Source: an uncultured Acidobacteriota bacterium (GTDB taxonomy: Bacteria > Acidobacteriota > Vicinamibacteria > Vicinamibacterales > UBA2999). From it: 64,000 bases of DNA. Within the stretch, counting starts at the first letter, position 1; every line of letters begins with the position of its first letter. The stretch spans positions 569,814-633,813 of the forward strand of contig CAWIWS010000020.1 of assembly GCA_963839865.1 (NCBI GenBank). The letters are read 5' to 3'. A model generated the notes under the pieces. It saw nothing but the letters and a program-made list of their open reading frames with translations, made no database searches and was not told the origin of the DNA. Both the position numbers and the translations under genes were made by a program. Of the stretch, positions 18,411 through 52,878 are shown piece after piece.

Positions 18411-18474
18411 CAAGACAAGCAACGCGACCACACGCTGGAGCGCGAGCCACGATTCTACTCCACGGCCCTGCCGC

Positions 18475-20379
18475 CTACACGTCGAGTTCGACGGCGTCTT
18501 CGGCGCGGTCCATGATGAACCGGAAGCGCGCCGACGCGTCCTTGCCCATCAGCTCGTTGATCACGCGGTCGGTCACGAGCTGATCGGCGATCTCCACCTT
18601 CAGCAGGCGCCGGGTCCGCGGGTTGAGCGTGGTCTCCCACAGCACCTTGGGCATCATCTCGCCCAGGCCCTTGAACCGGGTGATCTCCGGGGTGGCGCGG
18701 CCCGGCCTTCTGCCTGATGATCTGCTCCTTCTGCGCCTCGTCGAGCGCCCAGAAGGTCTCCTTGCCGATGTCGATGCGATAGAGCGGCGGCTGCGCGAGG
18801 TAGACGCGGCCCGCCGTCATCAACTGCGGCAGGTGGCGGTAGAGGAACGTCAGCAGCAGCGTGGCGATGTGGTGGCCGTCGGAATCGGCGTCGGCCAGGA
18901 TGATCACCTTGCCGTAGCGCATGCGATCGAGATCGAAGTTCTTCCCGACGCCGCAGCCGAGCGCCGTGACGAGGTCGGCGAGTTCCTTGTTCTCGAGCAC
19001 CTTCGCGGTGGAGACACCTTCGGTGTTGAGCACCTTGCCGCGCAGCGGCAGGATCGCCTGCCGCGCGCGGTCGCGGCCCTGCTTGGCCGAGCCGCCGGCC
19101 GAATCGCCCTCGACGACGAAAAGCTCGCTGGTGATCGAGCCGGGGCTCGTGCAGTCGGCGAGCTTGCCGGGCAGGTTCACGCGGCCCGCGGTCGGGCCCT
19201 TGCGGACGACCTCGGCCTGCGCCGCGCGGCTGGCCTCGCGCGCGCGCGCCGAGAGGATGATGCGGGCCACGATCGCTTCGGCCACCGACTGGTTGTTGTT
19301 CAGCCAGTGCTCGAGGCCCGGACGCACGAGACCGTCCACGCCCGACAGCACCTCGGGGTTGTTGAGGCGATCCTTGGTCTGGCCCTGGAACTGCGGCTCC
19401 GCGATGAAGATCGAGACGATGCCCGTCATGCCCTCGCGAATGTCCTCCGCACTGAGCGTCACGCCCTTCGGCGAGAGGTTGTGGGTGTCGATGTAGTTGC
19501 GCACGGCCTTGCCGATGCCGGCGCGCAGGCCGTTCTCGTGCGTGCCGCCGGAGCCGGTGGGAATGCCGTTGACGTAGCTGCGCAGGTGCTCGTCGGTGGA
19601 CTCGGTCCACTGCAGCACGAGCTCCAGCTTGATCCCGTTCTCCTTCTCGAGCGTGAAGGGCACGTCATGCACGGGCTTGCTGCCGCGGTCGGCGACGATC
19701 TTCTTCAGGTAGTCGACGAGGCCTTCAGCGTGCTGGAAGGTGTCCTTCTGGCCCGGTGGCCTCGTCCTCGAACACGACCTTCACGCCCCGGTGCAGGTAG
19801 CTGGCCACTTCGAGCCGCTCACGGATGATCTGCGCGTCGAACTCGACCTTCGGGAAGATCGTCGGGATCGGGTCGGAAGAACACCGTCGTGCCGCTGCCG
19901 CGCGCGGCGCCGACCTTCTTGAGGCCGCCGGTGGGCTTGCCCTGCTTGAAGCTCATCTCCCACTGGAAGCCGTCGCGGCGGACGGTGGCGACGAGCTCGC
20001 GCGAGAGCGCGTTCACGACGCTTGCGCCGACGCCGTGGAGGCCGCCGGCCGTCTTGTAGTTACCGGCCTCGAACTTGCCGCCCGCGTGGAGCACCGTGAA
20101 GATCACCTCGAGGGCGCTCTGCTTCGTCTTCGGGTGCACGTCCACCGGGATGCCGCGGCCATCGTCCTCGATGGTGATCGACGAGCCGTCCTTGTGGAGC
20201 GTGACGCGGATGTTCGACGCGTGGCCGTTCATGGCCTCGTCGATGGAGTTGTCGAGCGTCTCCCAGACGAGATGATGCAGGCCCGTGCTGCCCACGCCGC
20301 CGATGTACATGCCGGGGCGCTTGCGAACGGGTTCGAGTCCTTCGAGGACGGTGATGTCTTTTGCGGTGTAGGAGGCCAC
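18475..20379 (-). CDS. type IIA DNA topoisomerase subunit B (GyrB/ParE), about 4 apparent frameshifts
   Basis: [51 protein letters not shown], Toprim [33 protein letters not shown]-terminus [18 protein letters not shown]. About 635 aa, without the long GyrB insertion. Confidence 0.85.
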
Positions 20380-21459: not shown

Positions 21460-21523
21460 CGTTCAGCCCGGCGGTTCAGCGCTTGGGTTCAGCACGATGG
21501 TTCAGCGCAAGGTCAGCGCGCGG
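21460..21523. repeat. four to five tandem 13-bp repeats of the same GGTTCAGC(G/A)C family
   Basis: CGTTCAGCCCGGC GGTTCAGCGCTTG GGTTCAGCACGAT GGTTCAGCGCAAG GGTCAGCGCGCG. Lies between the NYN-LOTUS gene stop and the DUF1835 start. Confidence 0.8.
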
Positions 21524-23205
21524 GCGACTTCCGCTTGCGCGCGACGGGCGCCTTCTTCTTCTCCGCAGCGGCAGCCGGGGCCTTGCGCGCGCGGGTGGCG
21601 CGCTTGGGCTTGGCGGCGCGCGCCGTCGGCTCGGCTTCGTTGCCGGGCTCGGGTCCGGAGGTCTCGGCCTCGTCGATTTCCTCGACTTCCGCGTCGATCA
21701 CGACCGGGGCCGGCAGGGCTTCGTTGCCGGGCGACGGGCCCTCACCGCTGTCGTCCAGGACCGGCGCGGCGTTCACCACGAGGCCCCACCCGTGCGGCAG
21801 GCTCTTGCTCGCGGTGGCCGCGTTGCTGAACACGCGGAGCGCGCCCTGGCGATCGCGTTCGAGGCGCAGGATGCCGTCCTTCTGGCACGCGCGCATCAAT
21901 TCGGCGATGGAGCCGAAGCGGCGTTCGTCGAAGTCGGGCTGCACCGTGCGCAGGAACTGCTTGAACTGCCGCGGATACATCGGCCACCGCGGTGGCGTCG
22001 TGGCCTCCGCGAGCGCGCGACGCACGACGGCCACGCCGTCGCCAAGCGACGCGGTGCTTTCCGAGCGATCCTGGGGTTCGGCGCCGGGACGTTCCTTGTT
22101 GCCGATCTCCCTGACGTCGGTGTCCATGTCGTCGCCGTCGCCTCCGCCCGCCTCGAGCAGCTCACGCGCGGCGCGGCGGCCCGCTTCACGAGCCGCGGAA
22201 ACCGGATCGGCGGACTCGAAGCGCGAGACACGGTCCGGTCGTTCAGCACGGCCGACGGGTTCAACGCGTTCAACGGGTTCGACTCGTTCAACGCGTTCGG
22301 TGAGTTCGCCTGTTTCAGAACCGGTTGAACCCGTTGAACCAGTTGAACCCGTTGAACCGCGTTGAACCCGTTGAACCCGTTGAACCTGTTGAACCCGCAG
22401 ACTCCATCTCATTGAGCTCCACCAGCGTGCTGCGACCCTGGTGCTTCAACGACACCAGGCCGTGCTGCGCCAGCTTGTCCGCGAAGTCGCGGAAGCTGCT
22501 GACGCCGTAGTCACGCTCGGAGAAGGACGAGTCCAGCTGGAGCAGCGTGCTCTTGAGCAGGCCCAGTTGCGGCGAGACCTCGCGGTCGGCCAACACCTTG
22601 AGCGCGCGCTTGACGAGCGTGAACGCCTGCTCGACGGGCTGCGTGCCACTGGCCACGGCGCGCGGGCGCTCGCCGCGCTCGTGTCGCGGATGGCTGGCGG
22701 CCCGGCCCCGGTCCGGGACGATGTTCTCGTAGGCGATGAACTCGGTGCAGTTCTTCTGCATCACCTGGCTGGTGAAGGCGCGACCGCCGACGACGAAGAC
22801 CTTGCGATCGTACTGCTTCAGTTTCTCGACGAGCGTGATGAAGTCGCTGTCGCCGCCCACGATGACGAAGGCGTTGATGTGGGAGTGCGTGAACGCCATC
22901 TCCAGCGCGTCGAGCGCGAGGTTGATGTCGGCGCCGTTCTTGTCGCCGCCGGGCGTCATGACGCGCTGCACGAGGCGCACGGCGTGATTCGCCATCGCGC
23001 GGCCGTAGTCGCCCGAGCGCTTCCAGTCGCCATAGGCGACCTTGGTGATGATCTCACCACGCTCCTTGACGGCTTCGAGCACCGCGCCGATGTCGAATTG
23101 GAGGCCGAGTGTTGTTTTTACGCCGATCTCGACGTTGTCGAAGTCGATGAACACGGCGATCTTGAGTTTCTGGTCTGACATGTGATCCTTGCTGAGTACT
23201 GACAT
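21513..23205 (-). CDS. NYN (LabA/DUF88) nuclease-like domain + two OST-HTH/LOTUS domains + Lys/Ala-rich basic tail; one frameshift inside an internal repeat
   Basis: NYN: KIAVFIDFDNVEIG...FVIVGGDSDFITLVEKLKQYDRKVFVVG. LOTUS 1: LKSTLLQLDSSFSERDYGVSSFRDFADKLAQHGLVSL. LOTUS 2: FKQFLRTVQPDFDERRFGSIAELMRACQKDGILRL. Tail AAKPKRATRARKAPAAAAEKKKAPVARKRK. ORFs 22315-23205 and 21513-22412 overlap in the (GST)n repeat. Confidence 0.7.
22241..22396. repeat. inverted arrays of 9-bp repeats (GTTCAACNN x about 6 then GTTGAACCN x 8) inside the NYN-LOTUS coding sequence
   Basis: Left arm 22241-22310: GTTCAACGC GTTCAACGG GTTCGACTC GTTCAACGC.... Right arm 22324-22396: GTTGAACCC x8 variants. On the minus strand it encodes (GST)n and (ERVEPV)n. 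Confidence 0.85.
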
Positions 23206-23385: not shown

Positions 23386-23997
23386 ATGCGTAGGATATGC
23401 ACTCAATACCGGTCGGTTTCGGCTCTTTTGGTGATGGTGGCCGCGGCGACCGCGTGGGCGGTGCCGGCGGCGGCCCAGCGCCCGGAAGTGCAGAAGCTCT
23501 TCCAGGCGGGCTCCTACGACGAAGCCGTCGAGGCCGCCCAGGGCGCCGACCCCGCGTCGGCCTACCTGGCGGCGCAGGCGCTCCTCAAGCTCGAGCAGAA
23601 CGATCAGGCCGCGGCGGCGTTCCGGCAGATCCGCGCCGGCGGCGATGAGTCGTGGAAGCTCGTGGCCGAATCGGGCGAGGCGCTGATCGCCAACGACGGC
23701 GCACGCGCGCTCGACCTCGCGCAGCAGGCCGTGGCGGCCGGCGACACCTCGTGGGCGGAGTATCAACTCGGCCTCGCCGCGAGCAAGCAGAACGACTTCA
23801 ACACCGCGGTGCGCGCGTTCAACCGCTCGATCGAGCTGAAGGGCGACTTCGCCTACGCGCACTACTACGCCGCACTCGCCCACCAGCGTATCCGGCAGCT
23901 CTCGAAGGCCGCGGAGCAGTTCGAGGCCTTCCTCCGCCTCGCCCCCGACGCCCCGGAACGGCAGGCGGTGGTCGCGATTATGCGAACCCTCAAGTAG
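23386..23997 (+). CDS. secreted TPR-repeat protein
   Basis: Signal peptide LLVMVAAATAWAVPAAAQ. TPR-like helices: AEYQLGLAASKQNDFNTAVRAFNRSIELKGDFAYAHYYAALAHQRIRQLSKAAEQFEAFLRLAP. Confidence 0.65.
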   Translation: MRRICTQYRSVSALLVMVAAATAWAVPAAAQRPEVQKLFQAGSYDEAVEAAQGADPASAYLAAQALLKLEQNDQAAAAFRQIRAGGDESWKLVAESGEALIANDGARALDLAQQAVAAGDTSWAEYQLGLAASKQNDFNTAVRAFNRSIELKGDFAYAHYYAALAHQRIRQLSKAAEQFEAFLRLAPDAPERQAVVAIMRTLK

Positions 23998-24072
23998 AAA
24001 GTGGAAAGTAGAAAGTTGAAAGTAGAAAGTGAAAGGGCCTTTCCACTTTTCACTTTCCACCTTTCACTTTTT
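23997..24072. terminator. AT-rich GAAAGT-repeat hairpin between convergent genes (putative bidirectional terminator)
   Basis: GAAAGTG GAAAGTA GAAAGTT GAAAGTA GAAAGTGAAAGG GCC TTTCCACTTTTCACTTTCCACCTTTCACTTTTT. It abuts both stop codons. Confidence 0.6.
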
Positions 24073-27000
24073 AGAAGATGTGCCCAATCCCGACATACCA
24101 CCGGGCGCTCTTGAGGCTGTTGGCCGCGCGCGTGGAGGTCGGGGTGACCAGGTCGGCGGGGATCCCGACGTCCGCGCGCAGCAGGCCCACCGGCGTGTTG
24201 AGGCGCAGGCCGCCACCGTAGCCCACCTTCAGGCTCCCCAACGACAACGACTCGTCCTGGTGCGTGATGGTGCCGGCGTCGATGAACGCGACGCCGCCCA
24301 CCCACTTCGACAGGGTGAACCGCGCCTCCTCGTTAAGCACCACCATCGACTGGCCGCCCTCGGGCAGCCCGAAGAAGTCCGTCGGCCCGAGGCCGCCTTC
24401 CCCGTAGCCGCGCACCGTCGTGGCGCCGCCCGCGCGGAAGCGATCGCTCGGCAGCAGCTCGTCCGGCCCGAACACCAGGCCCAGCTGCGCGCGCGACGCG
24501 AGCACGAGGCGCCGACCCATCGGCGCGAAGTAGAACTGCTGCAGCAGCAGCTTGCGATTGGTCACGTCCGCCGCCAGCCAGTCCGCGGCCTGTTCCCAGG
24601 ACGCCGACGAGAACGTGCCGCGGCGCGAGTTCAGAGGGTCGTCACGCCGATCCCACAAGACGGCGGCTGTGATCCGGCCGAGGTTCGCCGTGAAGTCGAG
24701 CGGCAGCGGATCGATCGGTGACGGGTCGGGGTCGTAGGTGTGATTGCGCTCGTACCGGTATCCGTAGACCACCTGCACGCCGTTCCTGCGCCACCGCTGC
24801 TCCACGCTGGCGCCAATGCGATCGGCCAGCGCCGAGATTTCGTCCGCATCGTCGCGCAGGCGCTGGCGCTCGACAAAGCTGTAGAGCAGTGAGCGCGCGC
24901 GCCAGCCGAAAAGCCGGGACGTGCCAAAGAAGATGTTGGCGTCCTGGGTGTCGTATTGGTATTGCGCGAAGCCGCCGACCGTGAGCGCGCGGCCGAACAA
25001 GTTCTGGTTCTTCACTTCCGCCACGACGCCGAAGTTTTCCTTGCTGGCGAATTCCTCGATGGACGGCGTGCGTTCGCCTTCGAGCTGGAAGCCGTAGCGC
25101 AGGGTCCACTCCGGATATTCCTGCACCGTCACCGCCGCGCGAACCGGCTGGACGCCGTCGACGACGTCCCCGACCGGTTGGGCATCGATGTCCACGCGGC
25201 GAAACACGTTCGTGTCGTAGAGGCGCTTGCGCGCGACCGACCAGTCGTCCAGGTTGACGGGCTTGCCCACGGAGAAGCGCAGCGCCTCGGCCACGACGTT
25301 GGGATTGGTGTGGTCCGCGCCGGCGGTGGTGACCGCCTGCAGCACCTGCTGCGGTCCCTCGACCACCGCGAAAGTCACGACCACCGCGTCGCCGTCGCCC
25401 ACGGCGGTCTCGGCGTCCACTTCCGCCGCGTTGAACCCGTCCAGGCGGTACCGATCCGCGATCCGCTGCCGCGCGTCGCTCACCGCGGAGGAAACGAACG
25501 GCGACGGCGGCAGGATCATCGCCGCGCCGCGCGCGGCCGCGAGGCGCGTTTCAGCGACGCCTGAGAAGCGCACCTCGCTAATGCGCGCCTGCGGGCCCTC
25601 GACGATGCGCACGGGCAGCACGCCGGTGGTGTCCTCGATGTCCAGCGGACCGGCGGTAACGGCGGCCTTCAGGTATCCCGCGTCACGATACAGCGACTGA
25701 ATCGCGGTCGCCACGGCCGATGGATCGATCCACGCCTCCAGGTCCAGGCCCGCGCCGGTGACCTCGGCCTTCAGCCTGTCGGACGAGACGGCGGTGTTGC
25801 CCAGGAAGCGAATCTCGCGCGCCGTCACCGGCGCGCCAGGCGTCACGTCGATGCGCAGGCGCTTGGCGTCCGCCGACGGCCGCTCCATCGTGCCCACCAC
25901 GATGTTCGCGATGCTGCCGCTGGTGACGAGGTAACGACGCACGCGCGTGGTGACCTCGTCGATCAGGAACGGGTCGAACACGGTGCGCGTCCAGGCGGCC
26001 TGGAGCGCCTTGAGTTCCGAGGCGGGCAGGTCGGCGCCGCGCACCACCAGCGTCGTGACAGGGCCGGGGTCCACGCGGTATTCCAGCGTGATGCCGCGGC
26101 CGCCCTCGCCCTCGATCCGGCGCACGCGGACACGCGCCTCGAAGCGGCCCTGCGCGTGCAGGGCGTCGCGGACGGCGTCGATGTCGCGCTGCAGGTCGAG
26201 GAACTCGAGAGGGTCGCCGGGGCCGAGCTTGATGTGTTTCCGCGCGTCCGCCTCGACCGCCGGCGTGGCGTCCACGAACGTGACGGCCACCACCGTGGGG
26301 CGCGCGGCCCTCACGCTGCCCGGCGTCTGGCCGCCGCCGCCGAACGTGACCTGGTGGCGGATGCCGAGCCCCAGCGTCGCGTTGTCCCTCGAGAGACCGC
26401 GCAGTTCGAGGTTGGGCCAGGGGAAGTAGCTGACGATCACGGTGGACTTGCCGCTCTCGCGGAGGTTCTGCGACAGCGTGACCTCGACCTGGCTGCTGAC
26501 GCGCTTGGCGATGGTGAGGCGCGTGGCCGGATCGGCCTCGTTCGCCACGAGCAGGGGATCCTCGCGGAAGTCGGTGTCCACGTAGTCGCCGCGCTCCACG
26601 CGCAGCGCGTCGAGGCCGATCGCCCGGCCGGTGAGGCCGAGCACGTCGGCGGAGAGCAGCGTCAGCGCGCTGCCGGCCCCGGCGCCGCCGCCCACGATCT
26701 CCGCCGCCAGCTCGCCGCTGGTCTTCGAGCCGTCCTCCGACGTGAGGTCGATCGAGGGATGGTCCAGCGTGCCCGTCAGCGTCATCGTCACCGTGTCGGT
26801 GCCGACGCGGGCGTCGGCCGCGATGTTGAACTCGGGCTCGATGCGGCGAAGGTTGGTGAACGACACGTCGCCGCGCGTGAGGCGGAACGTGCGGCCGGCG
26901 AGATACACGCTCCCGGCCTCGCGCATCGTCACGCGGCCGGTCATGCCCGGGGCCGCCACGGTGCCGACGACGCGAAGGTTGGCGCCGGCCTCGAAGCGGC

Positions 27001-30000
27001 CATAGTTGTTGTCGACCACGATGTCCTCGGTGGTCGTCACGCCCAGGTTGAGGCGGATGCGATCGAGATAGGGCTGCGCGACAACGGGGACCGACGGCGC
27101 CGCCGTCCGGCGCGCGAGCGCGGCGAGCGAGATCGTGTCGGTGTAGGCGCTGCGTTGGACGCGGATGTCGCCGGTGACGGTCGGGGATTTCGGATCCGGC
27201 ACGAACGTGACGAGCCCGTCAATCTCGCTGCGCAGGCCCCTGGGAAATTCGAGCGCCACGCCCTCCGCGTTGATGAAGATGGCGCCACCCGAGAGTTCGC
27301 GGCCATCGATCTCCACCGAGCCGCCGATGGCCACCTTGCCGCCGTTGGCAAGGCCCGTGATGGCGCCGAGACGGATCGTCCGGCCCTCGAGCATGATCGG
27401 ACCCGCGAGCTCGGTCAGCACCATGCGCGGATCGGAGATCGCGAGCTCGGCGTCGGCCAGCGTGATGCGGCCCTGGAGCGAGGGCGCCTCGAAGGTGCCG
27501 GTTACGCGCGCGTCGAGGTCGGCGGTGCCGTCGAAGCCCACCGTGGGCGCGAACGCGGAGAGCACGCGGAGATCCACCAGGCCGGTGACCGACATCTCAA
27601 TCGGCGACTCGCGCTCCGACGAGAGGTCGAGGGTCCCCGACAGGTTGAGCGGGTTGCCGGCGACGGTCCAGGTCATGTCCGCGAGGGTCACGTGCCCCGT
27701 GGCGAGCTCGATGCGCGAGGGTCGCGCCTGCTCGACGGGCAAGCCGGAGAATGTGAACGACGCCGTCTCGAGGTCGAGCGAACCGTCGACCGCCTTCAAC
27801 TCGAACGTGGGCACGCGCGCGCGGCCGCTGGCGGAGAAGTCTCCCAGGATGCCGGCCGTCGCCACCGTGCCGGAGATGCGGGGCATCGTGAGCGTGTCGC
27901 CGTCGAGCGTGGCCTCCAGCGAGAGGTTCCGGAGCACCGGCGATTCCGCGGTGGGCCCCACGGTGGCGTCGCGCACGGCCAGCGTGGCCGACGTGCCCGC
28001 GCGCTGCCCGTTGGACCTGAACACCACCGAGACGGCGCCCGTGGCATCGGCCGTGACCGGCAGGCCGAAGGCGCGCCCCATCCGCACGAGCTCCTGCAGC
28101 GCGCCGTCGAAGGTCCCTTTCAGTTCGCCGTCGAGCCGATCGGTCCACTCCCCAGACGCACTGAGGCGCCCGGCCCCTACGCGCATGTTCACCTCGTCCA
28201 GCGTGAGGCGCTTGTCGACCAGGCTCAAGTGCGCGGGCGCGGTGAGCGCGAGGGGCACCCCGCCGACGGTGACGTCAATCTCCTGGAGGTTCGCGTAGAC
28301 GGTGGGATTGGTGTTGCCCTCGAGCGCGCCCGACGCGGTGGCGCTCAGGCTGACCGCGCCGAGGACGCCGCCTTCGAGCGCGTCGACCATCGCGGCCAGC
28401 GGCTCCAGCGTGACGCGGTTGAACGCGCCCGTGGCGCGGTACTGGTACGGCGCGGCCGTCTGCACCGTGCCCGTGACCAGCGCACCGAGCGACGGGGCGC
28501 GCGCCATGAAGCGCGCGTGGTCGCCCAGCAGGTCAACGGTGACGTCGCCGCTGCCCACCAGCGCGCCGGCGGTCCCGCCCGATACGGCGAACTCAATCCG
28601 TCCGGCGCCGGCCGGACGATCGATCGTGCCCGCACCATCGAACTGCGCCTGGAGCACCGCGTGGGTGTCGCCCTCTTTCAGGAGCGAGCCGGTCCACGTG
28701 AGGCCCTGGCCCTTCAGGCTCGCGGTGTAGCTGCCGGCGTCCCAGTCGTACCGCAGGCGCCCCGTGATGGCGCCCGCGCCTTCGCGCAGATCGATCGAGG
28801 TGATATCGACGGCCTCCGCGGTGACGCGCCCGGTGGCCACGAGGCTGTCGACGGATTGATCCGCGAAGGTCAGAGACTGCCCTTCCACCGTTCCATCAAG
28901 AAAGAACGCGTCGAACGTTCCGCCGAGCGTGGCGGTGGCGCGAATGGGTCCGCTCAGCCGCCACGCGTCCGGCAGCGCGGCTTCGAGCGCCGAGGCGTCG
29001 GGCGCGTTCACCTGCAAGGCACCGGTCAGCGTTTCTTTCGTGATGTTCGCCGTGACGTCTCCGGTCACGCGGGCCGTGCCGCGTGCGAGATCGATGGAGG
29101 ACACGGTCACGTCGCGGACGCTGCCCTCGACGTTGGCGCCGCCCCGGACGGCGCCCAGCGAGGGAACCTCCACGGCCTCGGTGGCGAGCCGGGCCTGGTA
29201 GCGGGGATCGGCGAAGGAACCAGACAGCACGATCGGCACGTCCACCGCGCCGTGCAGTTCGCGCACGATCGCGGGGATCGTGATGCCAAACGTCGAGAGA
29301 CTGGCGGCGGCCGTGGCGACGTCGAGGACCTGCGCGTGCGCATTGCCGGCGAGCGTGCTCCCCCCGGCTCCCGACTCCCGGCTTGCCCTGAGCTTGGTCG
29401 AAGGGCTCCCGACTCCCGATTCGATCTCCCCCTCCACCCGCCCGTCGACGTTGAGGCCGTCCATGTGATGCGCGTGATCGAGCGTCCAGCGATCTCCGAC
29501 GAGCCGGCCGTCGAGCGTGCCGCTCACCGCGACGAGGCCCTTGCCCGCGCTGGGCGTCGCACGGTTCGCGACCTGGAGCCGGCGCGGGGCGGAGGCCTCA
29601 AACGTCAGCGATCCCTCGAGCCGCGACCCGAGCGGCTGGGGCGCGACCTCACCCAGTCGCAACGCCGCGCGGGCATCGACGCCGTGCCACTCCGCGCGCG
29701 CCTGCGAGGGCGCGTCGCCGAAGGGCACGGTGAACGACGCGACGAGCGTGCCGCCCGTGGCGGGTGTCAACGTCACGCCGCCGCTCGTCACGGCATCGAG
29801 CGTGACGCGAATGGGCCCGGCGATGCGCAGGCCGCGCTCGAGGCCCACCGACAGGTCGTCGCCGCTGGTGGTGAAATCGATCGTGGGCTCGTCCGCGGGG
29901 CCCGTGATGGCGCCGGCGATCCGCACGGAGCCGGCGACGGCCACGGGCGGCGGCACCCACGCGGCGGCGGACGCCACGTCGGTCGTGCCGTCGAACGCCA

Positions 30001-30733
30001 GGTCCAGCGCCGGCGCGTCGAGCGTGCGTGTCACGCGGCCCTTGACGGTCACGTCGACTTCGGCGGCCTTCAGCCGGAACCCGTCGAACGTCACGCCGGA
30101 TCCGTCGAAGGCGAGCTGGGTCTCCGTCGGCGCCAGCGTCAGCGTCCGGTCCTGCACGCGGAGCGCGGTGTTCCCGCGGATCGCGAAGAGGCCGCCCGCG
30201 CCCGGCGCCCGGTTGGCGAGATCCGCATCGATGTCCGGGACCCGGAGGTCGAAATCGCGCAGCACGTCGGTATAGCGGATCTGGAACGCGTGCAGGCCGA
30301 GGCCGCGGACGTCGAGACGCCGCGGCGTCGCCGGCGCCGGCCCGCCGTCGGACGGCGGCAAATTGGTGACGTCGTGCGCGTCGCGGCGAATGTCGACCAC
30401 ACCGCCGTCGATGTCGAGCCGATCGATGGAGAAGTGGCCGCGATAGGCGGCCCACGGCAGTCGGACCTCGATGCGCCGGGCGACGAGGAACGGCGCGTCC
30501 TCGTGGCCCACGGCGGCGAGGCGCACCTCGGTGACGACGACCCGGCGCGTGAGCGCGTTGTAGTCCAGCGCGCCCGCCTGGAGGGTCAGGTCATAACGGG
30601 TCAGGAAGCCGGTGGCCCAGGCGAGGACGCGTGCACGGGTCCAGGGCGTATGGACGGCCAGCAGGGCCACGGTGGCCAGCGCGACCGCTCCACCGGCCGC
30701 CAAGGCCACGCCCCTTCTCCACCGCGTCGCCAT
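24071..30733 (-). CDS. TamB-like (AsmA/DUF490) protein fused in one ORF to a POTRA + Omp85/BamA-TamA-type beta-barrel
   Basis: Uninterrupted 2220-aa ORF. N-terminal signal-anchor ALAAGGAVALATVALLAV, then a long repetitive beta-rich region. DUF490-like end ...TVIVSYFPWPNLELRGLSRDNATLGLGIRHQVTFGGG at about 26335. POTRA-like repeats follow directly (VVAVTFVD..., REIRFLGNTAVSSDRL, ISEVRFSGV). Omp85 barrel ends ...RFRAGGATTVRGYGEGGLGP...ARWYVGIGHIF. Confidence 0.75.
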   Translation of the reverse strand: MATRWRRGVALAAGGAVALATVALLAVHTPWTRARVLAWATGFLTRYDLTLQAGALDYNALTRRVVVTEVRLAAVGHEDAPFLVARRIEVRLPWAAYRGHFSIDRLDIDGGVVDIRRDAHDVTNLPPSDGGPAPATPRRLDVRGLGLHAFQIRYTDVLRDFDLRVPDIDADLANRAPGAGGLFAIRGNTALRVQDRTLTLAPTETQLAFDGSGVTFDGFRLKAAEVDVTVKGRVTRTLDAPALDLAFDGTTDVASAAAWVPPPVAVAGSVRIAGAITGPADEPTIDFTTSGDDLSVGLERGLRIAGPIRVTLDAVTSGGVTLTPATGGTLVASFTVPFGDAPSQARAEWHGVDARAALRLGEVAPQPLGSRLEGSLTFEASAPRRLQVANRATPSAGKGLVAVSGTLDGRLVGDRWTLDHAHHMDGLNVDGRVEGEIESGVGSPSTKLRASRESGAGGSTLAGNAHAQVLDVATAAASLSTFGITIPAIVRELHGAVDVPIVLSGSFADPRYQARLATEAVEVPSLGAVRGGANVEGSVRDVTVSSIDLARGTARVTGDVTANITKETLTGALQVNAPDASALEAALPDAWRLSGPIRATATLGGTFDAFFLDGTVEGQSLTFADQSVDSLVATGRVTAEAVDITSIDLREGAGAITGRLRYDWDAGSYTASLKGQGLTWTGSLLKEGDTHAVLQAQFDGAGTIDRPAGAGRIEFAVSGGTAGALVGSGDVTVDLLGDHARFMARAPSLGALVTGTVQTAAPYQYRATGAFNRVTLEPLAAMVDALEGGVLGAVSLSATASGALEGNTNPTVYANLQEIDVTVGGVPLALTAPAHLSLVDKRLTLDEVNMRVGAGRLSASGEWTDRLDGELKGTFDGALQELVRMGRAFGLPVTADATGAVSVVFRSNGQRAGTSATLAVRDATVGPTAESPVLRNLSLEATLDGDTLTMPRISGTVATAGILGDFSASGRARVPTFELKAVDGSLDLETASFTFSGLPVEQARPSRIELATGHVTLADMTWTVAGNPLNLSGTLDLSSERESPIEMSVTGLVDLRVLSAFAPTVGFDGTADLDARVTGTFEAPSLQGRITLADAELAISDPRMVLTELAGPIMLEGRTIRLGAITGLANGGKVAIGGSVEIDGRELSGGAIFINAEGVALEFPRGLRSEIDGLVTFVPDPKSPTVTGDIRVQRSAYTDTISLAALARRTAAPSVPVVAQPYLDRIRLNLGVTTTEDIVVDNNYGRFEAGANLRVVGTVAAPGMTGRVTMREAGSVYLAGRTFRLTRGDVSFTNLRRIEPEFNIAADARVGTDTVTMTLTGTLDHPSIDLTSEDGSKTSGELAAEIVGGGAGAGSALTLLSADVLGLTGRAIGLDALRVERGDYVDTDFREDPLLVANEADPATRLTIAKRVSSQVEVTLSQNLRESGKSTVIVSYFPWPNLELRGLSRDNATLGLGIRHQVTFGGGGQTPGSVRAARPTVVAVTFVDATPAVEADARKHIKLGPGDPLEFLDLQRDIDAVRDALHAQGRFEARVRVRRIEGEGGRGITLEYRVDPGPVTTLVVRGADLPASELKALQAAWTRTVFDPFLIDEVTTRVRRYLVTSGSIANIVVGTMERPSADAKRLRIDVTPGAPVTAREIRFLGNTAVSSDRLKAEVTGAGLDLEAWIDPSAVATAIQSLYRDAGYLKAAVTAGPLDIEDTTGVLPVRIVEGPQARISEVRFSGVAETRLAAARGAAMILPPSPFVSSAVSDARQRIADRYRLDGFNAAEVDAETAVGDGDAVVVTFAVVEGPQQVLQAVTTAGADHTNPNVVAEALRFSVGKPVNLDDWSVARKRLYDTNVFRRVDIDAQPVGDVVDGVQPVRAAVTVQEYPEWTLRYGFQLEGERTPSIEEFASKENFGVVAEVKNQNLFGRALTVGGFAQYQYDTQDANIFFGTSRLFGWRARSLLYSFVERQRLRDDADEISALADRIGASVEQRWRRNGVQVVYGYRYERNHTYDPDPSPIDPLPLDFTANLGRITAAVLWDRRDDPLNSRRGTFSSASWEQAADWLAADVTNRKLLLQQFYFAPMGRRLVLASRAQLGLVFGPDELLPSDRFRAGGATTVRGYGEGGLGPTDFFGLPEGGQSMVVLNEEARFTLSKWVGGVAFIDAGTITHQDESLSLGSLKVGYGGGLRLNTPVGLLRADVGIPADLVTPTSTRAANSLKSARWYVGIGHIF
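29358..29417. repeat. GGGAGTC-family element (copy 2), inserted in frame inside the TamB-like region
   Basis: The reverse complement reads GGGAGTCGGGAGCC CTTCGACCAAGCTCAGGGCAAG CCGGGAGTCGGGAGCC. It encodes ...ESGVGSPSTKLRASRESGAGG.... Confidence 0.6.
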
Positions 30734-30765
30734 CCCTTCGATTCTAGTCTCCTAATCGGCTACCA

Positions 30766-31332
30766 TTGGCGGTGGAGGATCAGCTTATGCAGTTGACAGC
30801 ATGGCTCAAGGTCGGCCTGACGGCGGCCATGAGCCTGGCATCGAGCGGCCTGGGCCTGGCTCAGGCGCCCGTGGCCTTGAAGGTGGGCGACATGGCGCCC
30901 GCGTTCAGCGCGCCCGGATCGGACGGCAAGACCCACGCGCTGGCGGATTCCAAGGGCAAGCAGTACGTCGTGCTTGCGTGGTTTCCAAAAGCGTTCACCG
31001 GTGGTTGAACGGCCGAGTGCAAGTCGCTCCGTGAGAGCGGCGATCTCATTCGGAAGTACAACGTCGCGTACTACATGATCAGCGTCGACACGCTCGAGGA
31101 CAACACGCGGTTCGCCAAGGAGCACGAGGCGGACTATCCGATCCTCAGCGACGTCTCGAAGGAAATCGCCAACAAGTATGGCGTGCTGGGGAAGAGCGGC
31201 TTCGCAAACCGCTGGACCTTCTACATCGGACCGGACGGCAAGATCCTCCACATCGACAACGCGGTGAAGCCCGCGTCGTCCGGGCCAGACATGGTCGCCC
31301 AGCTCGCGACGCTGAACGTACCCAAGCGGTAG
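30766..31332 (+). CDS. BCP-type peroxiredoxin (AhpC/TSA family) with in-frame TGA at the peroxidatic Cys position (candidate selenocysteine, or nonsense/error)
   Basis: ORFs 30766-31008 and 31075-31332 are in the same frame. Read-through gives [14 protein letters not shown][TGA][27 protein letters not shown]..., matching the BCP motif PKAxTxGCTxxxC. Confidence 0.7.
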
Positions 31333-46662: not shown

Positions 46663-47575
46663 TCAGGGTTCTCCGGCACTCAACCTCCCAGGGGTTACGC
46701 GGGACGCGTTCGCGACGGCCGGCGCCGCCCACGCGCGACTGGATCCGAGATCCAGCGTGAAGATCCAGTCCTGGATGAAGGCTGCCCCGAGCATGCCGTC
46801 ATAGATCATGTCCCGTGTCCTGATCGGCTGTCGAATCGGCCCAAGGCCGTCGATCTCGATGAGCCCTTGGCCCTGGTTGTCCACGAGACCGGCCATCCGG
46901 GCCACGTGCGGCGCCACCAGCGCGGGGTCGCCATTGCCGGAATCAAGCAGGAGCCACGCGCGGCGCCCACCCGCTCGGGCCGCGATGTACACGGTGGTCT
47001 CGGCTCCCGTCGGCCCTGTGGCCACCCTGATCGTGAGCGGCCGCATGCCTCTGGTCCGTTCCGCAAGGCTGTTGGCCGACTCGATCGTGATCCTCCCCGC
47101 GGCGAGGTCAATTGTCACCGGTCGATCGCGAAATGACCGCAAAGACACCACGCCGTCGGCCGGGGGCGCGCCCTTGGGCAGGATCGACCTGAGATCGAAC
47201 ACCCCGACACGCTGATGGGCGATCGCGACATCCCCCAGCCGCAGCAGCACATCGTCGCAGTACTCGAATGCGACCTGCTCGCCGCCTGCGCGAAATCCAA
47301 TCGCGCGGCCGTACGGCGTGCAACCGATCGCCGACGCGACCTCCGGCGTGATGATGGTCTCACCGCCACCGGTGTCGAAGATGAACGGATGCGCAGTGTC
47401 CGCGACGGTCACCACCATCGATCGCAACGGGCCTGCATAGACTGAGAGTTGGATGGTCGCCGGGCGGTCGCCGGGACGTGGCGCCACTACGGGGCTGTCT
47501 GGGTGAGCACATCCGGCGATCGCGGCTGCGAGAATGGCCGGAAGCGCCAACCTCCATGTCCCCCTCGCAATTGTC
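46663..47575 (-). CDS. retropepsin-like aspartic protease, probable lipoprotein (start uncertain, no ATG; TTG 47550 possible)
   Basis: Lipobox-like ILAAAIAGC and two Asp-protease motifs, FIFDTGGGETII and LLLDSGNGDPAL. Confidence 0.55.
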
Positions 47576-48059
47576 AGAACAATCCCCAGCGCTTGACGCG
47601 GGATTTGTACACCTCGTAGTCCGTGCCGTGAGCGAGGAGGAGACGCTTCTCCTCGGTCGGGACGATGTAGAGGGCCAGAAAGAGAAAGAACAGCGGGCCG
47701 TGCAGAAGGAGGGGATCGAGGGTCCCGAAGAGGAGAGTCAGGCCGACAAACGGGAGGAAGTCGAAGAGGTAGAAGGGATTCCGCGCCGCGGAGAAGGGGA
47801 ACTCCGTGATCAGTTCCCTGGCGTGCTCCTTGAACATGGGACTTGCGCGGTGTCTGGCGAAGAACTTGAACATCCAGATCTTGCTGGCGAGGAATGCCAC
47901 GACGCACGGCACAAAGAGGGCCCAGCCGAGAGGCGTCGCGGATGGGGGAGTGCGCAGGACGGGAAGGAGCCACACCCCGAACGCCCATTGCGCCAGAATG
48001 ACCAGCAACTGGATGACGAACATTTGGGGCGGCTGGATCCCGACTTCTCGATTAGCCAT
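47574..48059 (-). CDS. isoprenylcysteine carboxyl / phospholipid methyltransferase-family membrane protein
   Basis: TM-rich. SAARNPFYLFDFLPFVG...IVPTEEKRLLLAHGTDYEVYKSRVKRWG matches the ICMT/PEMT C-terminal signature. Confidence 0.6.
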   Translation of the reverse strand: MANREVGIQPPQMFVIQLLVILAQWAFGVWLLPVLRTPPSATPLGWALFVPCVVAFLASKIWMFKFFARHRASPMFKEHARELITEFPFSAARNPFYLFDFLPFVGLTLLFGTLDPLLLHGPLFFLFLALYIVPTEEKRLLLAHGTDYEVYKSRVKRWGLF

Positions 48060-48096
48060 GGCTGCTCCGGTGTAATCCCATTCGCATCATTGTCAT

Positions 48097-48435
48097 CTAG
48101 GATGGTGTCGAGTGCAGCAACGCCGTTCGCCATCCGGCACTCGACCGACGAAGGATCATGCTCTCGAGCCAGCGACGCTGGCGGCGTCCTTGCTGGTCCG
48201 TGATCTCGGAGGCAAGGAAGTACACGGCGTACGCCAGGAGGGCGCCGTTCTCCAGCAGGAGGTAATCGTCGGTCAGACAGGCGCGATACTTCGCCTTGTC
48301 GAGTCCGCGATAGGCCGCGTAATAGTCCTCAACCGCCCGCTTGATGGCCGGGTCTTCGTCCCGCGACGCGCCGAGTGAAGTGCACGCGCCCGCCACGGCG
48401 AAGCCGGTCGCACCGAGAAAATCCCGACGGTTCAT
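48097..48435 (-). CDS. small Tat-leader SnoaL/DUF4440-like protein
   Basis: MNRRDFLGATGFAVAGA leader. ...ESMILRRSSAGWRTALLHSTP is typical of the DUF4440 C-terminus. Confidence 0.45.
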   Translation of the reverse strand: MNRRDFLGATGFAVAGACTSLGASRDEDPAIKRAVEDYYAAYRGLDKAKYRACLTDDYLLLENGALLAYAVYFLASEITDQQGRRQRRWLESMILRRSSAGWRTALLHSTPS

Positions 48436-48531
48436 GAGCCTTCTCTCCTAGATGCGGATCGTTGTCGCTATGTGGCATCCGACACTGTCTTGCCGTGTGT
48501 TCTTCAGGCGGCGCCACGTGGCGCGCCGACG

Positions 48532-49431
48532 CTACAGCACCTGCGCTTTGCCCATGACCGCCTCGCACTTCTGGCGGACCTCCCGGGCGATCTCGTACGG
48601 GTCGCCGTCGCGGAATTTCGGGAGGAACAGCTCGACAGACAGGGGACCCGAGTATCCCTTCTCGGCCAGCTTCTGCAACATCGGAACAATCGGGGAGACG
48701 CCGTCGCCTGGAATGAACCGGCTGTTGTTGTCGAGGAGCTCTCGCGGCATGTTCGGCACGTCCTGGAAATGCACGTGCTGGATCTCGCCCGGCCTGATCT
48801 GGTCCATATCCTCGAGCTTATTGAGGCCGGACCAGAAGTGATAGAAGTCGAACATCAGGCCGAAGTTCGGATGTGCCGCCTCGCGCGTGACCTTCAACGC
48901 GGTCAACAGAGTCGACATGTACGGCGACGAACGCACGAACTCGACGCTGCATACCATGTTGAACATCTTGGCCGTGTCTCCCACGACGCGCATGTGGTCG
49001 GCCACGATGGCGTAGTCGTCGGCCGTGAGCTTCTGGGCGCCTCCGCTCGTCGTATAGACCTTCTTGACCCCGAGGAACGCAAACATCTCCAGGCGTTTCT
49101 TCAAGCTGTCAATGGCTCCCGCGTGATTCGGATTGGGCTCGAGGAGCCCGTTCACGCCCACTGCACCGTGCACCACGGTGAGCCCGTTATCCGACAGCAC
49201 CTTGCGCGCGCCCTCGAGGGTGTCGGTCTTGATGAAATCGTCGACCAGCGCGGCGTTGAGTTCGACGTTCCTGATCCCCGCCCTCGCCCATCCTTCGAGC
49301 GCGCCCCGATAGCCGGCCCCCGCAGACGTGTTCGAGTGCAGGCACAGCGTCATCTTGCCGCCGACGGCGAAGCTGGCCCGAGGCGCGATAAGCATCAATG
49401 GGGTCAAGAACACCGATCGTCTGGACAGCAT
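48532..49431 (-). CDS. sugar phosphate isomerase/epimerase (xylose-isomerase-like TIM barrel), secreted
   Basis: IRNVELNA...VEFVRSSPYMSTL...HPNFGLMFDFYHFW...IQHVHFQD...LSVELF. Intact 299 aa. Confidence 0.7.
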   Translation of the reverse strand: MLSRRSVFLTPLMLIAPRASFAVGGKMTLCLHSNTSAGAGYRGALEGWARAGIRNVELNAALVDDFIKTDTLEGARKVLSDNGLTVVHGAVGVNGLLEPNPNHAGAIDSLKKRLEMFAFLGVKKVYTTSGGAQKLTADDYAIVADHMRVVGDTAKMFNMVCSVEFVRSSPYMSTLLTALKVTREAAHPNFGLMFDFYHFWSGLNKLEDMDQIRPGEIQHVHFQDVPNMPRELLDNNSRFIPGDGVSPIVPMLQKLAEKGYSGPLSVELFLPKFRDGDPYEIAREVRQKCEAVMGKAQVL

Positions 49432-49629
49432 GGAAGGAGCCCCTGGTAATTTGGTAGATCAGAACAGTGTCGACAGTCTCTCGCCTAGGTCCGCAAGCGG
49501 ATGGTAGCCTTCTCGTGGGCCGCGCCGGACCAAATTCGACCGCCAGGGAGTCCAGGCTTCCTGGCGCCCAGGTGTCCCATGCATCGTTCGTCGATTGAAT
49601 CCACCGCATCCGACGGCAGATCTTTGGCC

Positions 49630-49668
49630 CGCTACTTCCGGCCGCAACGCCGTCGGCTGCAGCCGCCT
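49630..49668 (-). other. degenerate terminal attC-like site
   Basis: CGCAACGCCGTCGGCTGCAGCCGCCTGTTAGAGG retains the conserved GTCGGCTGCAGC..GC.TGTTAG half of the other attC sites, but the partner half is short and degenerate. Confidence 0.4.
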
Positions 49669-49669
49669 G

Positions 49670-50080
49670 TTAGAGGGCTCGTGCCTTTCCGGATTCCGTG
49701 TTCGATCCTTCGAGACGTGCCGACCTGGCCCCGCTCATGCGCCTCACGATGACGTCCAGGGTGATCGCGAGCGCGATGCCCGCCGTGTTTGCCACAAGGT
49801 CAAGGCGATCGTACACGTTCTTCATCAGGCCAAAACCGTCCAACACCTCGAACAGTTGCACGACCATGAACGCGAGCGCCGCCGCGGATGCGCGTGGGAG
49901 GTGCGACCGGGCCGTCACACGCCTCGCCAAGAAGTACACCGCGAACGACGCAGCAACGTTGCCGCCATAGCTCTGAACGAGCTCATCGGCAGGGCCTGCG
50001 TAGTGGCCTTTGAGCACAAGACCGCCGACGCCGAGCAATACAAAGAGGACGTCTTGAGCGCGTCTCGACATCTGCAACAC
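49670..50080 (-). CDS. cassette 8: small integral membrane protein, function unknown
   Basis: 136-aa ORF with 3-4 hydrophobic segments (VLFVLLGVGGLVL, AASFAVYFLA, LAFMVVQLF, TAGIALAITLDVIV). The GTG start lies in the attC core, with an ATG at 50071. Confidence 0.5.
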   Translation of the reverse strand: MLQMSRRAQDVLFVLLGVGGLVLKGHYAGPADELVQSYGGNVAASFAVYFLARRVTARSHLPRASAAALAFMVVQLFEVLDGFGLMKNVYDRLDLVANTAGIALAITLDVIVRRMSGARSARLEGSNTESGKARAL

Positions 50081-50198
50081 CTAACGCCGTCTCTCGCAGC
50101 CCGTCGGCGCAGGAACTGTCCGTTTAACGCTTGCGCTCACCCGCGGCCCCGGGGGGGCTCTTGACAAGGCGGCCGCCGGGTGCAGCGCGTGGTTAGGC
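50079..50198 (-). other. attC site (120 bp)
   Basis: ACCTAAC at 50079-50085 and GTTAGGC at 50192-50198, with an internal imperfect palindrome. Confidence 0.7.
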
Positions 50199-50214
50199 AC
50201 CGTTTTGGGCTCCT

Positions 50215-51009
50215 TCACCGTGCTGTCAGCGGCTCCAAGCCGGTTTTTCGAATGATAGAGGCGGAGGCTGACGACGCGAAGAAATCGATGAGATCCTTTG
50301 CGGCCTCCGGCCGCTTGGCGCCCACGACGACGCCCGCGGAGAAGACAGTCACTCGTTGCGCCGCTGGCGGAAGAGGCCCTACGTACTCGATGCCTGAAAC
50401 GGGGAGCAGTTCGCTGATCTGCTGAAACCCGATCTCAGCCTCGCCCCGCGCCACCACTGCTCCAACGGGCTCGGCCAGGATCTCCTTGCTCTTACCGAGG
50501 ATTTGATCGGCAATACCGAGGCGTTGGAACAATTCCTTGGAAAGGTAGACGCCGCTAGCGCTGGAGGAGTAGGCGATGGACTTGGCGCCCAGCAGCGTTC
50601 TCTTGAGTGCCTCGATGGAGCTGATATCAGGCTTGGGCGTTCCGGCTCGAACCGCCATGCCGATGCTTGAACGCACGAGCTGCACGCGGCTATTCGGCAT
50701 GACCTTACCGCGCTTGACCAACTGAAGTAGCGCCTCGTCTGCCAGGATGACCACGTCGGCCGGCTCACCCCGGTCCAGTCGACTAGGAATGGTGGTTGGG
50801 CCTTCCCCCATCGAAGCTCCGGTGATCGTCACGACCGTGCTGTGCGTGGTGCGCTCGAACTCCGGCACCAGTTGGAGAAACGCAGCACTGAACGCGCCGG
50901 ACGTCATAACCCTCAGTTCTTGTGCGCTGGCATGCGCAGACGCACACCACATCAGCCCGATGGTGATGAATGTCCTTGCGATTCGACCAGCAATGGACTT
51001 TGGTTTCAC
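50215..51009 (-). CDS. cassette 7: periplasmic substrate-binding protein (ModA/PBP-like)
   Basis: Signal peptide. LRVMTSGAFSAAFLQLVPEFE...ADVVILADEALLQLVKRGKV...IAYSSSASGVY...IGFQQISELLPVSGIEYVGPLP is typical of molybdate/tungstate-type SBPs. Confidence 0.65.
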   Translation of the reverse strand: MKPKSIAGRIARTFITIGLMWCASAHASAQELRVMTSGAFSAAFLQLVPEFERTTHSTVVTITGASMGEGPTTIPSRLDRGEPADVVILADEALLQLVKRGKVMPNSRVQLVRSSIGMAVRAGTPKPDISSIEALKRTLLGAKSIAYSSSASGVYLSKELFQRLGIADQILGKSKEILAEPVGAVVARGEAEIGFQQISELLPVSGIEYVGPLPPAAQRVTVFSAGVVVGAKRPEAAKDLIDFFASSASASIIRKTGLEPLTAR

Positions 51010-51049
51010 TGCAGTCCCCGATCAGATGCCGTTGTTCACGAATCCGTGC

Positions 51050-51143
51050 GCCTAACGCATGGCGGTTGAGCGGCCGGCGGTAACCGTCACCCGCATGAAG
51101 CAGCTAGCTTATCTCGCCGGTCCGCTCCAACCGCTGGTTAGGC
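51050..51143 (-). other. attC site (94 bp)
   Basis: GCCTAAC at 51050-51056 and GTTAGGC at 51137-51143. Confidence 0.75.
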
Positions 51144-51182
51144 TGCTTCGCGGACCGCGCGCCGCGAATCGCGTCCAAGTTG

Positions 51183-51663
51183 TCACTTTGTCGCAGGAAG
51201 GCTGTTCCAGATATCCCGATGCAGCTTCCAGGAGCCATCGACCTGCCGCTTCCAGACCACCACGTACTTGGCCATCGCCGTCGTCGGCTCCTTTCCCGCC
51301 GACTGAATCGTTAGGGAGACGTTCCCTACTTCGTCGGCGACGTCACCACTCCTGCCCACATCAATGGTTGTCAGCGCCGCACTCTGAACCCCGCCATCCC
51401 TTTGAGCCTTCCAAAACTCTCCGATGGCTCCGTTTCCGCGGATCATCTCGCTGTCTGGCGGAAATGCGATCGCGTCGGACGTATACATCGCGGAGAGGGC
51501 TTTGGCGTCGCCCCGTGCAAAGGCCTCGCTGAACTTGGCGTTCGCCGCCTCGATAGCGGCTCGCGCGTCACGTATGCCTTCGTCGTTCGCTTTCGATCCT
51601 GCACAAGCAGTCGACGAAATCGCCGATCAGGCCGAAAAGGACAACCGCTCGTGTGGACAACAT
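51183..51663 (-). CDS. cassette 6: secreted SnoaL/DUF4440-like protein, one apparent frameshift near 51600
   Basis: MLSTRAVVLFGLIGDFVDCLC leader, then (other frame) AIEAANAKFSEAFARGDAKALSAMYTSDAIAFPP...KYVVVWKRQVDGSWKLHRDIWNS. Confidence 0.6.
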
Positions 51664-51739
51664 GCGCACCTCCGTTGAACCGCATTGAGCCAACATCGTG
51701 ATACCTCAAAGTATCTCGACGCTTCACACCCTGGAAGCA

Positions 51740-51835
51740 GCCTAACGACCGGCCGCTCAGCCGCGAGCGGCGGGCACGGTCACGCGAAGGAGTCTAAACC
51801 AACTGCCGCTCGTCGGTTGCAGCGGCTTGTTAGGC
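51740..51835 (-). other. attC site (96 bp)
   Basis: GCCTAACGACCGGCCGCTCAGCCGCGAGCGGC...GCCGCTCGTCGGTTGCAGCGGCTTGTTAGGC. Confidence 0.85.
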
Positions 51836-51857
51836 TGCGCGGAGAGCTAAGGGGCCG

Positions 51858-52373: not shown

Positions 52374-52425
52374 CTGTCTTCGACTCCCTCGTGGAAAGCG
52401 ACCCGCCACGCCACAGGGCGCGACA

Positions 52426-52755: not shown

Positions 52756-52776
52756 GAGGCGATTCTCTCCTGAGCG

Positions 52777-52873: not shown

Positions 52874-52878
52874 CGCTT

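Follow-up and report, generated by a model that had tools for sequence, protein, structure and literature searches.

A TamB-like protein and an Omp85 barrel joined in one polypeptide and conserved in Vicinamibacterales (Acidobacteriota)

Can the inner-membrane and outer-membrane components of the TAM (translocation and assembly module), TamB and an Omp85 barrel protein, be encoded as one polypeptide, and what would such a chain do? The question is raised by a single open reading frame (ORF) on the reverse strand of a 64,000-nucleotide stretch of DNA (the window), which comprises positions 569,814 to 633,813 of contig CAWIWS010000020.1 from an uncultured Acidobacteriota bacterium of the order Vicinamibacterales. 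An earlier note, made from the sequence alone, had described this ORF as a genuine covalent fusion of a TamB-like protein to POTRA repeats and a complete Omp85 barrel, with the junction in the periplasm and no accidental read-through of two genes, and had proposed a profile scan, a search for the same architecture in related genomes and structure prediction of the junction. The results of these analyses are reported here. The fusion is real and conserved, a conclusion that is held with near certainty. Its principal parts are listed below; Pfam calls are those with a score above the gathering cut-off of the family, and structures were predicted with AlphaFold2 as two overlapping halves, using alignments of 34 homologs.

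24071..30733, reverse strand: whole fusion ORF, 2220 aa plus stop, ATG start, no internal stops
26396..27349, reverse strand: Pfam TamB/DUF490 (PF04357), residues 1129-1446, 83.2 bits against a cut-off of 22.4, E 2.9e-23
26297..26341, reverse strand: linker GGGGQTPGSVRAARP, residues 1465-1479, 15 residues, Gly/Arg/Pro-rich, with low predicted local distance difference test (pLDDT) values
25118..26296, reverse strand: five POTRA domains, residues 1480-1872, seen as five β-α-α-β-β units in the model; Pfam PF07244, 81 bits
24074..25108, reverse strand: 16-strand Omp85 barrel, residues 1876-2220 in the model; Pfam PF01103, 129 bits, residues 1911-2220

Homologs were sought among 5.8 billion protein clusters (clustered at 90% identity), in which more than 100 clusters of 2,000-2,400 aa combined PF04357, PF07244 and PF01103 at identities ranging from 54% to 24%; the usual source names were 'TamB domain-containing protein [Vicinamibacterales bacterium]' or 'BamA/TamB'. 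The junction was unbroken in all 63 rows of the homolog alignment. A genome scan, restricted to one genome per species, found a relative in 170 genomes, and the best 80 of these all matched across the junction. The sources of these 80 were nearly all Acidobacteriota or Vicinamibacterales metagenome-assembled genomes (MAGs), and the few labels reading Acidimicrobiia, Bifidobacteriaceae or cyanobacterium are taken as mislabels. Complete ORFs of 2,158-2,452 codons were present at 51 of the 79 distinct loci, 19 ORFs were open to the contig end, and nine were frame-broken. These nine carried MFD-type isolate names, were located on contigs of 0.35-4.6 Mb, and contained scattered frameshifts, none of which was at the junction; each gave one alignment over residues 1465-1480 in a single frame. 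A junction query of 351 residues was also compared with 1.84 billion representatives at 50% identity and returned 158 matches at E <= 1e-30; about 140 of the top 150 spanned the junction in one stretch, and about half of the top 150 were full-length. The gene fusion is vertically conserved in Vicinamibacterales, a soil Acidobacteriota lineage, and the description of a genuine fusion with a periplasmic junction was upheld by the clusters, the loci and the representatives alike.

The simplest objection to such an ORF, that an indel error or a misassembly joined two genes, draws on the frameshifted genes on both of its flanks (gyrB, NYN and AhpC), yet it is extremely improbable given that the junction is in frame in all 79 loci from many independent assemblies, that the nine broken loci break elsewhere, and that the junction in the window is homologous to a conserved linker. 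The frame itself bears out the single 2220-aa ORF of the earlier note: its third-position GC is 0.91 in its own frame, and it forms the longest uniform codon-phase run anywhere in the 64-kb window. The sequence strings that had been quoted (…GLGIRHQVTFGGG, RFRAGGATTVRGY and GIGHIF) were all found at the positions given. In the public annotation the protein (P0001, 2,212 aa) is given a GTG start located eight codons downstream and preceded by GGAGAAGGGG; the ATG at 30733 (window 30710-30733, reverse strand) retains the basic MATRWRR and agrees with the homolog consensus MxxxRR…HTP. The membrane anchor is unaffected whichever of the two starts is used. Opposite the fusion gene, an antisense ORF of 1,546 codons (26156-30796, forward strand) gave no hit in Pfam; it is a shadow ORF of the kind usual in high-GC DNA and is not to be annotated as a gene.

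The description of the ORF as the longest frame-intact stretch in an otherwise indel-ridden window was also confirmed. The gyrB gene (18455-20379, reverse strand) has three frameshifts relative to the intact gyrB of the syntenic locus L085 (86-97% identical), the NYN-domain gene (21513-23205, reverse strand) has at least one, and the AhpC/TSA gene (30766-31332, forward strand) is split over two ORFs; none of the break sites in these genes is at a long homopolymer. The complete lack of breaks in the 6.66-kb fusion ORF is unlikely under evenly spread breaks and is unexplained.

Three candidates for close unfused orthologs, P0129, P0079 and P0076, were rejected because they are pieces of fused genes split by frameshifts or, in L083, by an insertion. 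The latter (L083, 12830-13799) is about 970 bp long, lies in POTRA1 of the fused gene and contains an IS630-type transposase gene. In L084 (13352-16304) the fused gene has frameshifts, and IS481-type transposase genes are located directly downstream. The most divergent fused gene examined was that of L080 (19892-23371; P0099, 2,016 aa), on a TARA marine scaffold, where it is located about 4 kb upstream of a MlaE-MlaF-MlaD-type operon for lipid trafficking. Between the window and L085, the fusion protein is about 42-62% identical, compared with 86-97% for gyrB and about 81-85% for NYN. Within the protein, conservation is lower in the TamB half than in the half with the POTRAs and the barrel. 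The fusion protein evolves fast.

At the junction, the earlier note had reported neither a stop codon, nor a signal peptide, nor any spacer. The first two are indeed absent, but a spacer does exist in the form of the 15-residue linker between the last TamB strand and POTRA1. Over 106 distinct junctions the linker had a median length of 15 residues (5th-95th percentile, 13-20) and a hydrophilic composition rich in arginine (19%), glycine (18%) and proline (14%). No cleavable signal peptide of the barrel part was detected at the junction, either by the hydrophobicity scan or in the linkers of the 106 sequences; the maximum Kyte-Doolittle value there was 0.89 and came from the first POTRA strand, whereas the leaders of unfused partner proteins reach 2.5-3.2. 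The linker occupies the position at which unfused Omp85 proteins carry their signal peptide. Its length is conserved and its sequence is variable, which suggests a geometric constraint rather than a recognition site. In the structure prediction, the linker appeared as a disordered, low-confidence segment between the TamB strands and POTRA1.

The features attributed by the earlier note to residues 1 to approximately 1466, namely an N-terminal anchor, a long β-rich region and a DUF490-like end, were all recovered, and the profile scan placed the TamB/DUF490, POTRA and Omp85 families above their gathering cut-offs. The corresponding elements, in addition to the DUF490 match given above, are as follows.

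30653..30712, reverse strand: signal-anchor or transmembrane helix, residues 8-27 (GVALAAGGAVALATVALLAV), after the basic MATRWRR
26738..30589, reverse strand: long β-rich TamB/AsmA-like region, residues ~49-1332, a run of strands in the AlphaFold2 model that is continued in the C-terminal model
26546..26719, reverse strand: helical segment in DUF490, residues 1339-1396, with model helices at fragment positions 280-288, 294-312 and 328-337
26342..26521, reverse strand: terminal amphipathic strands of the TamB part, residues 1405-1464, five strands at fragment positions 346-405, pLDDT ~60-82
26342-26377, reverse strand: last TamB strand TLGLGIRHQVTF (…GIRHQVTF), β-signal-like, ending at F1464

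Residues 8-27 are the sole strongly hydrophobic segment of the protein (mean Kyte-Doolittle 2.36). In the N-terminal model (1,100 residues, pLDDT 87.6), two helices, at 2-27 and 30-45, precede a nearly unbroken run of about 65 β-strands. The N-terminus gave weak DUF748/YhdP matches in Pfam, and homologs carried precomputed TamB_N, DUF748 and YhdP matches. When the N-terminal half was compared with the PDB using Foldseek, only weak matches were returned, with template modelling (TM) scores of <= 0.2 (the ApoB100 β-belt, LptD, and a TamB fragment at E 0.06); this search was not informative, probably for want of any solved structure of a full-length TamB bridge. The NCBIfam TamB equivalog, which models proteobacterial TamB, scored 30 bits against a cut-off of 825.

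The PF04357 match covers profile positions 8-363 of 381, and since the 18 leftover positions equal the 18 residues that remain up to F1464, the TamB part looks complete to its last residue. In addition to the elements listed, the model places one extra short strand within the helical segment (fragment 317-321), outside residues 1405-1464. The DUF490 of E. coli TamB carries three helices (αH1-3), all conserved, above the point where the β-taco ends, followed by six membrane-embedded strands that end in a β-signal strand (PMC13119328), and the C-terminal layout predicted for the TamB part matches it. Among 106 fused sequences, the TamB part ends in F in 83 and in L, I or V in 20; standalone TamB proteins end in …RVRHAF (L086) and …RLRHSK (L082), each followed by the stop.

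The description of POTRA repeats and a complete barrel proved correct as well. The Pfam POTRA repeats begin at residue 1494, and the C-terminal model (1,161 residues, pLDDT 79.5, predicted TM score [pTM] 0.57) had as its top PDB match a full-length five-POTRA BamA (E ~1e-40, ~830 aligned columns), with TamA next; the difference in Foldseek TM-scores between open and closed BamA states was too small to use. Against the equivalog models, the protein scored 168 bits for BamA (TIGR03303, cut-off 297) and 55 bits for TamA (NF047950, cut-off 625), thus reaching neither, and it has five POTRAs, not three. Two motifs of the barrel are present.

24404-24442, reverse strand: loop-6 motif RFRAGGATTVRGY (VRGY), with R and G invariant in homologs
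24074-24097, reverse strand: C-terminal β-signal YVGIGHIF, with F as the terminal residue in 66 of 67 loci

Compared with the TAM of E. coli, the fusion shares the TamB-type anchor, the long β-rich region, the DUF490 helices and terminal strands with a β-signal-like end, as well as an Omp85 partner with POTRAs, a 16-strand barrel and a VRGY loop 6; the periplasm-spanning arrangement is also expected for the fusion. It differs in that the E. coli module consists of two polypeptides, encoded tamA then tamB, whereas here one polypeptide runs from TamB into the barrel. TamA has three POTRAs and the fusion five, the barrel part of the fusion is without a signal peptide, its TamB part is about 200 residues longer (1,464 versus 1,259), and its scores are far below the TamA and TamB equivalog cut-offs.

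Unfused tamB→omp85 pairs were found in L082, L086, L088/89 and L090/91, at about 25-28% identity to the fusion. In L082, a Vicinamibacteria MAG, the TGA stop of tamB (1,283 aa) overlaps a putative GTG start of the Omp85 gene (GTGA), whose product would have the hydrophobic leader MILALLLAALPAVTS. In L086, tamB (1,370 aa) is followed by TAA ATG and an Omp85 protein of 987 aa with a clear signal peptide, and the arrangement in L088/89 and L090/91 is the same as in L086 and L082. The reverse order, omp85-x-tamB, was found in L092 and matches what a 2015 paper reported for Acidobacteria (PMC4494059). The canonical order of tamA then tamB given in the earlier note is not the usual one here; the unfused relatives mostly have tamB first. 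These operons share with the fusion the gene order, a TamB that is 28% identical over ~500 residues and ends on an RH…F/K motif, and an Omp85 that is ~26% identical; they differ in consisting of two genes, in the signal peptide and length of the barrel protein (861-987 aa, which suggests more POTRA-like units), and in their neighbourhood. The fused barrel module scored 155 bits against the tamB-linked Omp85 of L086 and 88 bits against a canonical BamA linked to skp/lpxD. The assemblies that carry a standalone TamB (DASSJI, JBKPHV and JBKPEH) coincide with no fusion-bearing assembly.

Two-gene relatives with a signal peptide on the barrel protein, which the earlier note had regarded as evidence against a fusion, were seen at distant identities only, and the 79 related loci are all fused. 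The distant relatives look like the ancestral or sister state of the fusion, and for this reason they explain its origin and do not refute it. Judging from these sequences, the fusion most likely arose by stop loss in a tamB→omp85 operon: where stop and start of the adjacent genes abut or overlap, the stop of tamB would have been lost and the leader of the barrel protein would have been turned into the linker.

A small third gene (154-226 aa) follows the unfused operons (L086, 11042-11614; L088, 8967-9617; L090, 13189-13737; L082, 14439-14903). In L086 and L088 it gave weak matches to peptidyl-prolyl isomerase (PPIase)/SurA-like proteins, which suggests a periplasmic chaperone; it is distinct from the TPR gene that neighbours the fused form.

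Taken as a whole, the locus is likely best explained as encoding a single-polypeptide TAM. The docking and lipid-transfer mechanism proposed for it, which is given a little better than an even chance, is modelled on E. coli, in which the C-terminal β-signal strand of TamB is antiparallel to β1 of TamA in a hybrid barrel, crosslinks connect TamA T267/E269/G273 to TamB E1258/Q1256/D1252, and it is in the hybrid-barrel state that lipid homeostasis of the outer membrane is supported (PMC13119328). The antiparallel pairing places the C-terminus of E. coli TamB at the periplasmic face, next to where β1 begins. The earlier note had TamA and TamB contact each other through POTRA and DUF490, which is incomplete, as the hybrid barrel of the TamB C-terminal strand and TamA β1 contributes too (PMC13119328). 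In the fusion, an uncleaved signal anchor would fix the N-terminus in the inner membrane, Sec would export all of the chain beyond this anchor, the TamB-type β-rich region of ~1,300 residues would span the periplasm, and the C-terminal barrel would be inserted by the β-barrel assembly machinery (BAM). The …IRHQVTF strand would then dock on β1 of an Omp85 barrel, in the simplest case that of the same chain, giving a permanent bridge from inner to outer membrane that probably moves phospholipids and supports outer-membrane biogenesis. Since 15 residues join the docked strand to POTRA1, the five POTRAs would be forced into a closed loop under the barrel. By analogy with the E. coli complex, the protein probably serves as a phospholipid bridge whose own barrel docks it to the outer membrane. 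A further elaboration, in which the TamB strand sits permanently in its own lateral gate (a hybrid barrel of ~22 strands) with a POTRA ring that the 15-residue linker pulls shut and with the neighbouring TPR protein as an accessory, would make the protein a self-contained conduit and is put forward tentatively, at somewhat under even chances. It is very unlikely that, as a bolder variant would have it, the fusion is the only Omp85 of these bacteria and also inserts itself.

Several observations weigh against a single-polypeptide TAM of this kind. A pTM of only 0.54-0.57 leaves the arrangement of the domains uncertain. A BamA-like role is possible, given five POTRAs and a family score that is better for the BamA model than for the TamA model. 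The one canonical-looking BamA recovered, P0185 (in a skp-lpxD context), proved to come from Omnitrophota and so says nothing about a separate BamA in fusion-bearing genomes. The unfused operons are located downstream of acetyl-CoA carboxylase genes and the fusion in an AhpC … TPR-NYN-gyrB setting, so that the two may be paralogs and not orthologs.

The BamA-like features could mean that the fusion is the main or only BamA of the cell with a tethered TamB, acting chiefly as an outer-membrane-protein insertase, as proposed for Borrelia TamB-BamA. TamB does pair with BamA where TamA is absent (PMC5582053; PMC4494059), and the best family and fold matches of the barrel half are to BamA; no second Omp85 was found in the window or in ~1.5 Mb of related loci, although at ~20 kb per genome this says little. 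This role is nevertheless unlikely. The BamA score remains under the equivalog cut-off, the barrel module is closer to tamB-linked Omp85s than to canonical BamA, and the neighbours of the gene are AhpC, TPR, NYN and gyrB, not the skp (ompH)/lpxD/fabZ/lpxA context of canonical bamA, which was encountered in the Omnitrophota locus only. Furthermore, Acidobacteria have been reported with a canonical BamA and a second, TamB-linked copy (PMC4494059), and a permanently occupied lateral gate would hinder substrate folding, following an argument made in PMC13119328.

Docking could also occur in trans, with the TamB strand entering a barrel that belongs to a second copy or to a distinct BamA, to give dimers or chains. 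With 15 residues between the strand end and POTRA1, which of the five POTRAs is the most distant from the barrel along the chain, the linker may not reach far enough for self-docking if the POTRA arm does not bend back, and the pTM of the C-terminal model (only 0.57) leaves room for this. In the E. coli BAM complex, however, the POTRA domains curve into a ring-like arrangement, and such curvature could make self-docking feasible. Docking in trans is considered fairly unlikely. The linker bears on another alternative, a polyprotein precursor that is cut in the periplasm to release an ordinary TamB and an ordinary Omp85: it is disordered, exposed and basic, reading ERRVRP in many close homologs and SVRAARP in the window. 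No protease motif or precedent was identified, though, the conservation of linker length and not of sequence suggests a geometric constraint, and cleavage would leave the retention of the fusion in every examined locus unexplained. Processing of this kind appears decidedly improbable, and a chain that remains intact and docks on its own barrel is preferred.

The intact, self-docked chain can be set beside several known systems. In Acidobacteria, a second BamA copy is genetically coupled to TamB and was put forward as the protein from which TamA evolved (Heinz et al. 2015, PMC4494059). That system shares with the fusion the phylum and a BamA-like Omp85 coupled to TamB; it differs in having separate genes in the order bamA-tamB and up to seven POTRAs, and the words 'fusion' and 'fused' are not mentioned in that paper (PMC4494059). 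In Borrelia (PMC5582053, PMC11361582), TamB is likewise associated with a five-POTRA BamA-type protein and not with a three-POTRA TamA, but the proteins are separate and BamA there is the only, essential BamA of the cell. Two other trans-envelope systems follow the same principle, with inner-membrane, periplasmic and outer-membrane parts of a lipid-trafficking route united in one polypeptide: the LptF/G-LptA-LptD fusion of Thermotoga (PMC10160955) and the transenvelope MlaD of diderm Firmicutes (PMC10665443, cited in PMC13018214). Both belong to unrelated families (Mla and Lpt), not to AsmA/TamB plus Omp85.

No description of a TamB-Omp85 fusion was found in the non-subscription literature searched, which included the TamL paper, the two 2026 papers on TamAB structures, the 2024 review of the TAM and the Omp85/TAM surveys of 2014 and 2015, in agreement with the impression of the earlier note that the architecture was undescribed. 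It is already recorded in databases under generic names and yet, as far as is known, undiscussed; for annotation, the current names, 'TamB domain-containing protein' or 'BamA', do not convey the architecture. After Mla and Lpt, this would be the third protein family in which a trans-envelope lipid route is collapsed into one polypeptide. The route of phospholipids to the outer membrane and the true role of the TAM are active questions, on which a fusion kept across an abundant soil order offers independent evolutionary evidence for a fixed 1:1 unit and for a TamB C-terminus held next to an Omp85 protein. It also provides a single-chain, stoichiometrically defined object for structural work, and it poses a puzzle of biogenesis, namely how a C-terminal barrel can be folded into the outer membrane when 1,460 residues of β-sheet keep the same chain tied to its inner-membrane anchor. 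If the self-docked conduit were true, it would be a natural proof that, in its working state, the TAM is a lipid bridge stably docked to Omp85 rather than a machine that folds substrates; the fusion is of interest to specialists in outer-membrane biogenesis mainly as natural evidence on that working state.

Immediately downstream of the fusion gene, one neighbour recurs.

23386..23997, forward strand: TPR protein, 203 aa, convergent to the fusion gene; Pfam TPR families

This protein has a Sec-type signal peptide (…AAATAWAVPAAAQ, followed by RPE after the cleavage site) with no lipobox cysteine, and no BamD-specific match was found for it. A TPR homolog is located within 1.5 kb downstream (<=1.5 kb) in 69 of the 73 loci with enough sequence, in convergent orientation in 67 of the 69, and is also present in the distant L083 despite a different upstream context; the NYN gene was found in 62 loci. 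It is a speculative suggestion from gene position and sequence that the TPR protein serves as a periplasmic accessory partner, and its adjacency may reflect only order-wide synteny.

Elsewhere in the window, the stretch from approximately 47500 to 56640 has a GC content of about 60-63%, lower than the 67% of the window, and its GC signal by codon position is weak; an Rfam scan of this low-coding stretch gave no match and no rRNA. It ends at a tyrosine integrase gene (55506-56639, forward strand) that adjoins a gyrA fragment (56896-59118, reverse strand), and is probably an integrated mobile element.

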